This document shows positions 29,077-50,724 of a stretch of 64,000 nucleotides of DNA, piece after piece. A program made the position numbers and the translations under genes. Source of the stretch: a virus; IMG/VR virus record IMGVR_UViG_3300031787_000063, positions 15,718 to 79,717 of that record; one strand, written 5' to 3'. A model generated the notes under the pieces. The model made no database searches and was not told the DNA's origin. It worked only from the letters and a program-made list of their open reading frames with translations. Position 1 is the first letter of the stretch; every line of letters starts with the position of its first letter.

Positions 29077-29476
29077 CTACAACCTGCATGGCGAGTTGCA
29101 GCAATTGCTCATTATCCAGCGTAACTTTTGAAGATTTTTTAGACTTAGATTCCTCTAATGTCTTTCCTCGGATAAGCATTAAAGATTTAACATAAATTTC
29201 AAATGCTTTTACTTGGTTAAATTCTAGAGGCGAGACTTTTGCTGCTTGATATAATCTGCTAATCTCTAACTTACAAAGTTCTTCTTCATTAGAACCAACC
29301 GCTATTGTGCTGCTAGAAAATTTAGCTAACTCTTCTAAGTGACGCAGTTTATCTTTAGTAGCGTCTAACTCTTTTTGAAGTTTTAAATTAGTTTGAGTGA
29401 GCTTTTCTCCATATTTTTTAAGTTCTTCATTTTGAGTTAATAGATCCCTTACTTCCTCTGCTGGTATTATCTTCAT
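29057..29476 (-). CDS. Terminase small subunit candidate
   Basis: 139 aa helical protein overlapping terL start; positional inference only. Confidence 0.45.
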   Translation of the reverse strand: MKIIPAEEVRDLLTQNEELKKYGEKLTQTNLKLQKELDATKDKLRHLEELAKFSSSTIAVGSNEEELCKLEISRLYQAAKVSPLEFNQVKAFEIYVKSLMLIRGKTLEESKSKKSSKVTLDNEQLLQLAMQVVDDTSEQ

Positions 29477-37852: not shown

Positions 37853-37949
37853 GAAACCAGTGGCGAAAAAGCCTAATACTGTTATGAAATCTAAAAAAGA
37901 CTACACAAGAAAAATAAAACATAAAAAAAGTTGTTCACCAGAAGAATAA
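37812..37949 (+). CDS. 45-aa very basic peptide with YxRKxKH motif
   Basis: Below track cut-off; GGAG RBS; MKKIVIKIKAPKIRKPVAKKPNTVMKSKKDYTRKIKHKKSCSPEE*. Confidence 0.6.
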   Translation: MKKIVIKIKAPKIRKPVAKKPNTVMKSKKDYTRKIKHKKSCSPEE

Positions 37950-37980
37950 TGTTATTATATACGTAAGAAAAGGAGCAAAT

Positions 37981-38187
37981 ATGGCTAACACTTTTAAAAC
38001 TCGGTATTCAAATGTAAATGGAAAAGCAACTAAATTTAACAAAAAACTAACAACAGGAACTCTTGATTTTATTGTACGTAAAGCTGGAGTAATTCCTGCG
38101 AAAAGTATTGCTGCAATTATTCATCGACCTCTTAAAACGGTCCAAAGCGTAGCCTCCCGATTTGGAGTTTCTTTAAGAGTTGGATAA
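37981..38187 (+). CDS. Small basic HTH-like protein
   Basis: AAGGAG RBS; AKSIAAIIHRPLKTVQSVASRFGVSL. Confidence 0.55.
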   Translation: MANTFKTRYSNVNGKATKFNKKLTTGTLDFIVRKAGVIPAKSIAAIIHRPLKTVQSVASRFGVSLRVG

Positions 38188-38194
38188 AAAAATG

Positions 38195-38272
38195 GTGTCA
38201 CATACCTCATGAATCTTGATACTGCTAGACAGTATAGGGATTTTGTCAAGAAAGTTGTGAGGTTGGCGAGCT
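38195..38272 (+). ncRNA. 78-nt structured motif, copy 1 (unknown family)
   Basis: 57/78 ungapped identity to 61114-61191 by hand; ATACTG-ctaga-CAGTAT hairpin inside ATCTT/GGGAT helix. Confidence 0.6.
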
Positions 38273-38291
38273 ATCGCCTATCAAGGAATTT

Positions 38292-39540
38292 ATGCAACAA
38301 AAATTAGAATTAACAGCTATTGGATATGTTTTTACACTAGCAAATATATACCTTACAGTGAGTGGTAAACCTTTGGCTGGAATTGCTTTTGGATTAATTT
38401 CTTGTTATTTTTTTATAAAAGCTTTAATGATTAGAAAAAAAGATGATGAAGAAGATCGTTAATTTTTTAAAAACAGATTTAATGAGAATGTCCCCTTACG
38501 AAAGATGGAGACTGTGTTTCCAAGTTGTTCAAGTTATGATAACTCTTGGAGTACCTTTTATTGCGGTATGGTTAAGCAAAAATTGGAATTGAGTTTTTGG
38601 AATGGAGTTTTGGCTGGGGCAATAGTAACTTTTTTCGTATGCTCCGGAATTGTTGGGGAATTTTTCGTAAGTAAAGAGGTTTTCAAATTAAAAAGAATAT
38701 ATATTGATGGAAAAATATATAGATTATGTGAGGATAGATGAATTACTTTTTAATATTAATCGTACTTTCTGGATCTGGGGTATCAACCCAATCTATCCCT
38801 TTTGAATCAAGTGCTGGATGTCTTAAAGCATTATCATCAGTTTTAGAAATGGAAAAAGGAACTCACCTAACAATAAAATCAAGGTGTGTAAAAAATGATT
38901 AGTTTAATTATTGTGTGTGTTTACAACCTTTCTCTATTAGCTGGAACCGCATACTTAGTTCATAATGGGTGGAGTATATTTACATTTATCCCAGCATTTT
39001 TTCTTTTATTAGGAATAAAGTACAGGGAATGAATTTTATAAGTCAAACTTTAAGCAACTTAACTTCTGGAGGAAAACTATATGTTTTCTTTCAGATTATC
39101 TATTTGGCAGGTGCTCTATTTTTTACTTATGTGCAGATTCAAATCTTAAAAGAACTAAAAAAGCCAAATAATTGCTGTTGTGAAAAAAATGAAAGACCCA
39201 GAAATTAATCCTTATGCTATAATAGCTATGATGGTTCGAGTTGCTCTCTTGCCGTTCTTGTTACTACTTATATTGAGAGGTTGTCAATGAAAAGAGATGA
39301 AATGATTGGGGCAATTGCCATGAGATTAAAAATTCTACATTTACAAGAATTTAATCAGTTTACAGACGGAGAAATGCCATTGCCATATCTATTGGATAGA
39401 TTAGCATCAACCGCTCTAGAAACTGTAGAATTAGAAGGAATGTTACCTCCTCCAGATTACTCAGAAACTTATTATAGTAGTGATGAGCCGGGAGGATATC
39501 ATCCAAATAGATGGGAGGACGAAGATGAACAGGCGTAATT
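38292..39540 (+). other. Cluster of short, mostly hydrophobic ORFs
   Basis: Tightly packed 40-85 aa ORFs with RBS and overlapping stop/start codons; individual starts uncertain. Confidence 0.5.
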
Positions 39541-50647: not shown

Positions 50648-50724
50648 GGGGTTGTAGTTCAATTGGTCAGAGCGTCCGGCTCATAACCGGAGGGTTGCAG
50701 GTTCAAGTCCTGCCAGCCCCACCA
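50648..50724 (+). tRNA. tRNA with CAT anticodon (Ile2 or elongator Met)
   Basis: Acceptor GGGGTTG/CAGCCCC, TCCGG-ctCATaa-CCGGA, GCAGG-TTCAAGT-CCTGC, encoded CCA; lacks initiator features. Confidence 0.93.

Follow-up and report, generated by a model that had tools for sequence, protein, structure and literature searches.

A sequence present twice in a viral genome

The right-hand 64 kb of a 79,717-bp viral record from IMG/VR (the window analyzed here) contains two similar segments, at 38195–38272 and 61114–61191, that raise the question of what kind of element they represent and what that element does. Aligned without gaps, the segments are identical at 57 of 78 positions, in agreement with the initial annotation of this DNA, and all of the invariant blocks that the annotation listed are present in both. 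At the base composition of the window, the probability of at least 57 matches in 78 positions is 4.5e-17, and ~2e-7 such matches are expected by chance over all position pairs. A 30-nt pattern taken from the central conserved blocks had no chance matches in shuffled sequence. The whole 79,717-bp record contains exactly two copies, both on the plus strand, and a covariance model run on the window returned the same two copies only. We refer to the copy at 38195 as copy A and to the copy at 61114 as copy B.

Distribution of the motif in viral and metagenome contigs

Copy A follows a conserved gene for a 68-aa HTH protein (37981–38187, plus strand), the stop codon of which lies 6 nt before the motif. 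Using a search pattern consisting of GTGTCACATAC, a gap of 12–42 nt and then AAAGTTGTGA, we identified seven more viral contigs, and in most of the contigs found in this way the motif begins a few bases past the stop codon of a homologue of the 68-aa ORF. We gathered a second set of loci through the HTH protein rather than through the motif, which makes the sampling unbiased. Within this set, the motif follows the HTH gene in all but one lineage of related viral contigs (it is absent after L019/L020) and in 10 of 11 metagenome loci (absent in L051), identifying the HTH gene as its syntenic partner. At the L051 locus (1163–1330), which follows the most divergent HTH homologue (54% identity), a GC-richer, hairpin-prone non-coding stretch of ~150 nt stands in the place of the motif.

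Our collection amounts to 27 distinct instances from ~20 contigs, all of them uncultured viral or metagenomic, and a further copy in a bacterial MAG. Whole-record scans revealed two or three copies per viral genome, always in sense orientation – two in this genome, two each in G002 and G003, and three in G005. A covariance model built from ten instances picked up all instances in ~200 kb of related DNA, with no additional matches.

At the gathering threshold, Rfam 15 yielded only two tRNA matches in the whole window; at E ≤ 10 it returned nothing relevant for either copy, riboswitch and ribozyme models included; and at E ≤ 1 it gave zero matches in ten other instance-bearing loci. A literature search for the box sequences returned only chance primer matches. 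No cultured relatives of the phage were found by DNA or protein comparison, and an HTH-protein scan of 185,579 species genomes gave no match.

Predicted fold and covariation

From 5′ to 3′ on the plus strand, the motif comprises a hairpin (P1), an optional insert, an A-rich joiner, a 3′ box, a linker, a second hairpin (P3) and, in about half of the instances, a U-run. Pair statistics were obtained from a model-based alignment of 26 sequences. Standard pairs fill 98% of pair cells, compared to 32–62% when partners are slid by one to three columns, and none of 500 shuffles reached any observed pairing measure. Eight pairs in total are changed on both sides.

P1 consists of GGUG and UACC around a UCACA loop and is sometimes extended outward, reaching 7 bp in L048. 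Two of its four pairs have double-sided changes (G-C to A-U in three sequences and U-A to C-G in one), and a G-U pair is kept in 26 of 26 sequences. P3 lies 3–5 nt past the 3′ box and has 4–6 bp with a conserved GCU or GCUA loop. All five of its pairs are changed on both sides and 95.5% of its cells are paired, with the variants GGCG/CGCC, AGCG/CGCU, GGUU/AACC, AGUU/AACU, GGCU/AGCC, GUGC/GCAC and GACG/CGUC. RNAalifold independently predicts both hairpins, and we consider the comparative support for P1 and P3 to be good.

The invariant 3′ box, (A)AGUUGUGAG, is preceded by the A-rich joiner and followed by a linker that is usually (GA)GGU, with GAGAGU or GAGUGU in some instances. The initial annotation had paired TCACA with TGTGA. 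As RNA, the five UCACA/UGUGA pairs are standard in 26 of 26 sequences, and the pairing is backed by a single event in L050, the sole sequence that diverges here, in which both sides are changed (UCACC with GGUGA). The other positions are invariant and thus uninformative for covariation. A search for more variants, using a pattern that leaves the P1 loop free, returned only chance matches in coding DNA, and a profile built from divergent HTH proteins for the same purpose added no viral contigs to the set. With one compensatory event, the comparison lends moderate support to an H-type pseudoknot between the P1 loop and the linker.

The insert between P1 and the joiner measures 0 to ~60 nt and usually forms a hairpin, the sequence of which is unrelated between lineages; L025 has no insert at all (...ACC-C-AGUUGUGAG). 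An ATCTT/GGGAT helix that the initial annotation had drawn belongs to the insert and gains support from L059, where both sides are changed to give the compensatory ACCUU/GGGGU.

In copy A, P1 can be read directly at 38194–38206 (GGUG 38194–38197, UACC 38203–38206, loop UCACA 38198–38202). The insert, P2, extends over 38207–38250 and pairs AUCUU 38213–38217 with GGGAU 38237–38241 outside an inner stem (AUACUG 38219–38224, CAGUAU 38230–38235) with the loop CUAGA. The joiner and 3′ box occupy 38251–38264, where the A-rich joiner leads into invariant AAAGUUGUGAG and the linker GUU; UGUGA 38256–38260 would pair with UCACA 38198–38202 as a pseudoknot or long-range helix. P3 follows at 38265–38278 (GGCGA 38265–38269, UCGCC 38274–38278, loop GCUA), with no U-run after it and the ATG of the next gene at 38292.

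Copy B, also on the plus strand, has P1 at 61113–61125 (AGUG 61113–61116, UACU 61122–61125, loop UCACA 61117–61121), with an outer A-U pair in place of the G-C pair of copy A. Its insert (61126–61168) has AUCUU.../...GGGAU like that of copy A and a partly different inner stem. The A-rich joiner and 3′ box (61169–61183) contain AAAAGUUGUGAG, with UGUGA at 61175–61179, and the linker GUGU. P3 and what follows it occupy 61184–61202: GGCG 61184–61187 and UGCU 61193–61196 enclose the loop region GGCUG and include two G-U pairs, and a terminator-like A+UUUUU lies at 61197–61202. A terminator scan calls neither P3 of copy A nor copy B, where the stem is weak, with two G-U pairs and U5.

The 3′ strand of P3 lies past the end originally given to the repeat, and we therefore redefine the element as 38194–38278 for copy A and 61113–61196, plus the U-run to 61202, for copy B. 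An alternative TGTCA/TGGCG helix that had been suggested is unsupported, TGGCG being the 5′ strand of P3.

Two further pairings were considered. A fourth helix, formed by the A-run before the 3′ box and the U-run after P3 and enclosing the 3′ module, was rejected when permuted controls did equally well (372/2000). Many minimum-energy folds contain an ACCU(C/U)/(G)AGGU pairing with the linker, which competes with P1 and cannot form where the linker is GAGAGU or GAGUGU; we regard it as a possible second state. Single-sequence folding-energy z-scores were not better than those of shuffles.

Read from the opposite strand, the G-U pairs of all three helices (P1, P2 and P3) become A-C mismatches, and in copy B and L006 the plus strand folds with far greater stability than the minus strand. 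Both observations argue that the functional molecule is the plus-strand RNA, which has the same sense as all flanking genes.

The analyses also bear on explanations other than RNA structure. Spacing between the boxes leaves a remainder of 0, 1 or 2 on division by three in 14, 3 and 9 of the 26 instances, respectively. Because the spacing does not keep to multiples of three, and because the inserts bear no relation to one another, there is no conserved peptide, and codons for the same residue never differ between copies A and B – in line with the earlier view that conservation is not at the protein level. The end of an insertion element or MITE was rejected on the grounds that the motif is syntenic after the same HTH gene in ~20 contigs, with two to three copies in one orientation; we found no transposase among its neighbors. 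Neither a match in Rfam, nor insertion-element features, nor a conserved peptide – any of which the initial annotation had named as evidence against its proposal – was thus observed. Three other candidates were rejected: a tRNA or tmRNA (ARAGORN and Rfam call tRNAs only at 50648 and 60948, not the motif), a sigma-54 promoter of the form TGTCAC-N5-TTGC (TTGC occurs in two lineages only) and N4-type hairpin promoters (an ORF for a giant virion RNA polymerase is lacking).

These results provide good support for the motif being a previously undescribed family of conserved structured RNA; the general category, a phage leader or intergenic regulatory RNA, is already known. With 27 instances, helices that covary in the alignment and no Rfam counterpart, the ‘new RNA family’ of the initial annotation is supported. 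Its further characterization there as a small RNA is only one of several readings if a free-standing molecule is meant, and nothing that we found specifically supports the suggested protein-binding decoy.

Genomic settings

We observed the motif in three settings. In type A, which includes copy A and most instances, the motif starts 6–33 nt past the stop codon of an HTH gene of 63–68 aa, and the next start codon lies 5–25 nt after P3. An extended −10 site (TGnTATAAT or one mismatch) is present 220–247 nt upstream of the motif in 10 type-A instances. For copy A, the promoter-like site before the HTH gene is at 37931–37958 on the plus strand (TTGTTC, 16 nt, then TGTTATTAT at 37950–37958), 235 nt upstream of the motif. 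In type B (L058 and L009b), the extended −10 site is 21–23 nt upstream of P1 and a small gene follows the motif; L009b has a U7 run after P3. Overall, extended −10 sites are found either 21–23 nt or 220–315 nt upstream of the motif.

The sequence TGnTATAAT occurs 13 times in the whole window, where 5.7 occurrences are expected. Nine of the 10 plus-strand occurrences are in plus-strand gene blocks (at 29247, 29696, 35626, 39215, 45266, 54392, 55904, 60789 and 61210). These sites are probably host-type promoters of the phage.

In type C (copy B, L003 and L059), a conserved non-coding cassette has the motif as its final domain. The extended −10 promoter-like site of the cassette is at 60770–60797 on the plus strand (TGGAGA, 16 nt, then TGATATAAT), and copy B stands at the 3′ end of a non-coding leader of ~390 nt. 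Upstream of copy B, the cassette (60798–61112) contains a ~140-nt leader common to two other phages and then a variable insert, which in the window is an 84-nt tRNA at 60948–61031. Directly upstream of copy B is a 57-nt element (61056–61112, plus strand; AUAGCGGGGCGGGAG...CUUACAGA) that forms one unit with the motif there and has ~50 nt identical in three phages. The loop UUUGUUAGUUU of this element can pair with AAACUUACAGA downstream, and CCGCUAU near 60820 can pair with AUAGCGG at 61056. The related phage L003 (2640–2880) has two tandem units of 57-nt element and motif, the first of which has a short insert, lacks P3 and runs straight into the next 57-nt element.

Just past the U-run of copy B lies a perfect extended −10 site, TGCTATAAT, at 61210–61218. 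This site overlaps the ‘acceptor’ strand GGGGATG of a ‘tRNA top half’ noted previously at 61205–61355, a region that may begin a new transcript instead of forming the 5′ end of a tRNA-like RNA; the Rfam tRNA model scores only 15.8 bits on 61301–61352. On one side of copy B is a tRNA, which ARAGORN calls Val, and on the other a T-arm-bearing RNA. At L010 (1800–1900), the motif comes after the HTH gene and is followed by a stretch with T-arm-like GGGGTTCGAGTCCC, so that a tRNA-like RNA appears to adjoin the motif again; Rfam at E ≤ 1 gave no match on the L010 locus.

The 68-aa HTH protein has 134 homologues among metagenome proteins. Its AlphaFold (AF2) model is a three-helix HTH (pLDDT 80.6), the best fold matches of which, all weak, are ECF sigma region 4 and GerE/LuxR HTH domains; the protein also weakly matches PHROG 323, ‘transcriptional regulator’. 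The only relative in a database phage, at 38% identity, is encoded by Flyfo siphovirus Tbat2_3 (L090; OL617042.1, 33450–33692). The surroundings of the gene are there lambdoid and nin-like, with a Ser/Thr phosphatase gene on one side and, on the other, a 205-aa gene upstream of tRNAs and a holin. No motif follows the HTH homologue in Tbat2_3.

Genes downstream of the motif are mutually unrelated and include a small membrane protein, a dUTPase-like protein and assorted small ORFs. After copy A, the interval 38292–39300 contains very small ORFs with hydrophobic segments (56, 49, 78, 54, 45 and 79 aa). Their order is conserved in L009 and they have no family matches; they are possibly holin-like or membrane proteins.

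A single copy in a bacterial genome

We scanned one genome per prokaryotic species with the search pattern and obtained a single match, in the MAG contig DATION010000003.1 (L091, 905–1000). The MAG is 0.9 Mb in size and is labeled Candidatus Udaeobacter, an NCBI label that is a poor fit for a 0.9-Mb genome. Its relatives and 400 sampled genomes of its phylum measure 0.4–2.1 Mb, from which we infer that the MAG is CPR-like.

The motif lies in a 615-nt gap between an aminoacyl-tRNA-synthetase-like ORF and ruvA, where a 33-nt core is followed by a canonical terminator, GAGGG-AGCAGA-CCCUC-U6, and then by a TTGACA-17-TAAATT promoter. The small ORF before it is unrelated to the HTH family. The MAG and the phages have only the core in common, a pattern that shows the P1/pseudoknot core to be the portable unit, with a terminator-type hairpin coming after it. 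We did not find the motif in 60 relatives of the MAG using the covariance model, or in 400 genomes of its phylum using the pattern with two mismatches. This lone bacterial copy offers a rare indication of which host the phages use, and hints that they possibly infect small-genome (CPR-like) bacteria.

Candidate functions

We tentatively rank first the reading in which the motif is a cis-acting leader RNA that modulates termination, placed like the put sites of HK022 or the nut sites of lambda. The nascent motif RNA would fold and act in cis, its target being either the polymerase that transcribes it or its own P3/U-run terminator, and would thereby set the amount of read-through into downstream genes. 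The motif would then be an antitermination or attenuation module, positioned like HK022 putL/putR or lambda nutL/nutR. Loop and linker are near-invariant though the linked proteins are only 45–60% identical, which suggests that the partner of the RNA belongs to the host and is conserved, as RNA polymerase is, and is not a phage protein that evolves quickly.

This suggested partner and a promoter-proximal position like that of early-operon antitermination sites are the reasons for the ranking. On its 5′ side the motif has a promoter or a small promoter-proximal HTH gene, and what comes directly after it is the next gene or a run resembling a terminator. The hairpin next to the core is a terminator in some genomes and a short triloop hairpin, also conserved, in others; about half of the instances have a U-run after P3, and the MAG copy has a canonical terminator. 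Our confidence is nonetheless low because the fold is neither that of put (two long stem-loops) nor that of nut (boxA and a pentaloop boxB), and because the other half lack a U-run. In addition, P3 at 4–5 bp is short for a standard terminator, and the terminator scan did not call P3 of copy A. Several observations would suit other readings equally well: next genes that lack an SD and start 5–11 nt past P3 also fit translational control; copy B, L009b and the MAG copy resemble the 3′ end of a discrete RNA, as expected of an sRNA; and the double change in L050 fits a symmetric DNA site.

A riboswitch-like or factor-responsive element is a reading that we regard as rather doubtful. Here, an H-type pseudoknot of ~34 nt would sense a small molecule, an ion, temperature or a protein, and its folding would gate the P3/U-run terminator or the SD-like GAGG in the linker. 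The minimal forms are suitably compact (L025 lacks the insert, and L042, L043 and the MAG copy have 11–13 nt), the loop and junction bases are invariant, and the A-rich third loop passes at once into a hairpin, as in the preQ1-I layout. The pseudoknot covers the first bases of GAGG, an ACCU../..AGGU helix competes with P1 in many instances, and L009a, L054, L005, L055, L058, L036 and L013 have an ATG 5–11 nt past P3 without its own SD. However, the competing helix is missing with the linkers GAGAGU and GAGUGU, no Rfam riboswitch was matched even at E ≤ 10, and the unrelated downstream genes have no metabolic theme.

It is similarly doubtful that the motif is a trans-acting sRNA or the 3′-terminal domain of longer RNAs. 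Such an RNA would have its own promoter or be cut from the 3′ end of the HTH mRNA, would end at P3 and the U-run, and would either have its target in the host or the phage or else titrate a protein; the initial annotation had proposed a small RNA or a protein-binding decoy. Its best cases are L009b and L058, with an extended −10 site 21–23 nt upstream (and, in L009b, U7 after P3); copy B, which ends a ~390-nt non-coding transcript with a U-run, followed by another TGCTATAAT; and the MAG copy, with its strong terminator and then a new promoter. Only these four have the appearance of a discrete RNA or of an RNA 3′ end. About half of the instances are without a U-run and abut the next start codon, and are thus most simply read through. 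Most fill a gap between genes on the sense strand or a 5′ leader, which makes a cis element at least as likely as a free sRNA. No candidate target was identified, and the single-stranded stretch that is invariant, besides being short, is taken up by the pseudoknot.

A small self-cleaving ribozyme or processing signal, which would free the HTH mRNA, or the cassette's tRNA-like RNAs, from downstream sequence, is improbable. Strong conservation of the core beside peripheral stems that vary, the presence of several copies in a phage genome and tRNA-like neighbors in copy B and L010 would all be in keeping with such a role, as would a pistol-like order of elements in which a hairpin-loop-to-linker pseudoknot precedes a second hairpin. 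Yet no Rfam ribozyme model matches at E ≤ 10, and a helix around the 3′ module fares no better than permuted controls (372/2000).

The symmetric DNA site mentioned above would be an operator, with the TCACA/TGTGA boxes as half-sites bound by the adjacent HTH protein. The boxes do form an inverted repeat next to the HTH gene, the linked protein resembles DNA-binding HTH domains of the sigma-4/GerE type, and a symmetric operator would also be expected to show a double change like that in L050. We nevertheless consider an operator very improbable: box spacing ranges from 3 to 60 bp without helical phasing, the G-U pairs kept in P1, P2 and P3 are meaningless in duplex DNA, and copy B, L058, L061 and the MAG copy are far from any HTH gene.

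Least probable of all is a mimic of a tRNA-Val anticodon arm with its codon (GU-CAC-AU, as U33, anticodon CAC and A37, with U-GUG-A), serving as a decoy or as a structure that binds ribosomes or enzymes, with a link to the cassette's tRNA-like RNAs. In its favor, no instance departs from CAC/GUG, not even L050 with its flanking-pair change, L048 has a 5-bp stem and a 7-nt loop, and copy B lies between the ARAGORN-called Val tRNA and the T-arm-bearing RNA. Against it, the stem mostly has only 3–4 bp, ‘position 37’ is a pyrimidine in L050, neither ARAGORN nor the tRNA model of Rfam detects the motif, which is otherwise in no way tRNA-like, and the resemblance may be coincidence in a 5-bp helix.

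If the motif targets RNA polymerase or its own terminator, it would provide a second case, independent in structure, of elongation control by RNA alone; a sensor or ribozyme would be a new compact class. In either event, the minimal forms, at 45–50 nt, are small enough for direct biochemistry. To our knowledge, structured regulatory RNAs of phages are few and nearly all come from cultured model phages; the present family comes from an uncultured phage clade that carries other non-coding RNAs too.

Comparison with known systems

The pistol ribozyme is compact and is built in the order hairpin, linker, pseudoknot partner and second hairpin. Our motif is compact and has the same order of elements; it differs from pistol in lacking the enclosing P2 helix and in having no match to the Rfam Pistol model. 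In the preQ1-I class, the loop of a ~34-nt hairpin reaches over an A-rich joiner to pair with a segment on its 3′ side, and a terminator or SD comes directly afterwards. The motif likewise has a hairpin loop pairing with a 3′ segment across an A-rich joiner, whereas its conserved bases are different, its gene context is not metabolic and its joiner can accommodate a large hairpin.

Intrinsic terminators resemble the motif in the GC-rich hairpin and U-run present in about half of the instances and in copy B, and the hairpin of the MAG copy is canonical. The differences are that P3 has only 4–6 bp and a conserved GCU loop, that half of the instances, including copy A, have no U-run, and that a conserved upstream P1/pseudoknot module is foreign to terminators.

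Lambda has two nut sites per genome, one right after a promoter and the other after the 66-aa HTH gene cro; nutR lies between cro and the terminator tR1. Both nut and our motif have a conserved linear segment followed by a small hairpin, and both are sited after a promoter or a small HTH gene. Unlike nut, the motif has no boxA-like CGCUCUU, the loop of P3 is GCU(A) rather than a GNRA-like pentaloop, and the linked HTH protein resembles sigma-4/GerE rather than Cro. We recognized no gene for an N-like arginine-rich protein.

HK022 encodes two put RNAs of ~70 nt that are similar in sequence, the first close behind PL and the second ~270 nt past the PR start (PMC9378689). They act on RNA polymerase without protein factors, suppressing pausing and termination, and fold into two long stem-loops in a V shape with a triplex in stem I (PMC9378689). 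This activity of put works through the zinc-binding domain of the beta′ subunit of the polymerase. The motif is like put in having two to three similar sense-strand copies per genome, in its size range and in its promoter-proximal placement. It differs in fold – a 4-bp hairpin, a loop-linker pseudoknot and the P3 triloop hairpin, against two long irregular stem-loops and a minor-groove triplex – and we saw no sequence resemblance between the two; the phages that carry the motif are unrelated to lambdoid phages.

It is conceivable, though on balance unlikely, that the motif represents a new class of protein-independent, polymerase-directed antitermination RNA, put-like in function and structurally unrelated (a mini pseudoknot and a triloop hairpin), which would be used by a clade of uncultured, mostly freshwater phages and be common to one 0.9-Mb CPR-like bacterium. 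We know of no such RNA other than put, and a second, unrelated solution would, if real, show the put-like strategy to be general.
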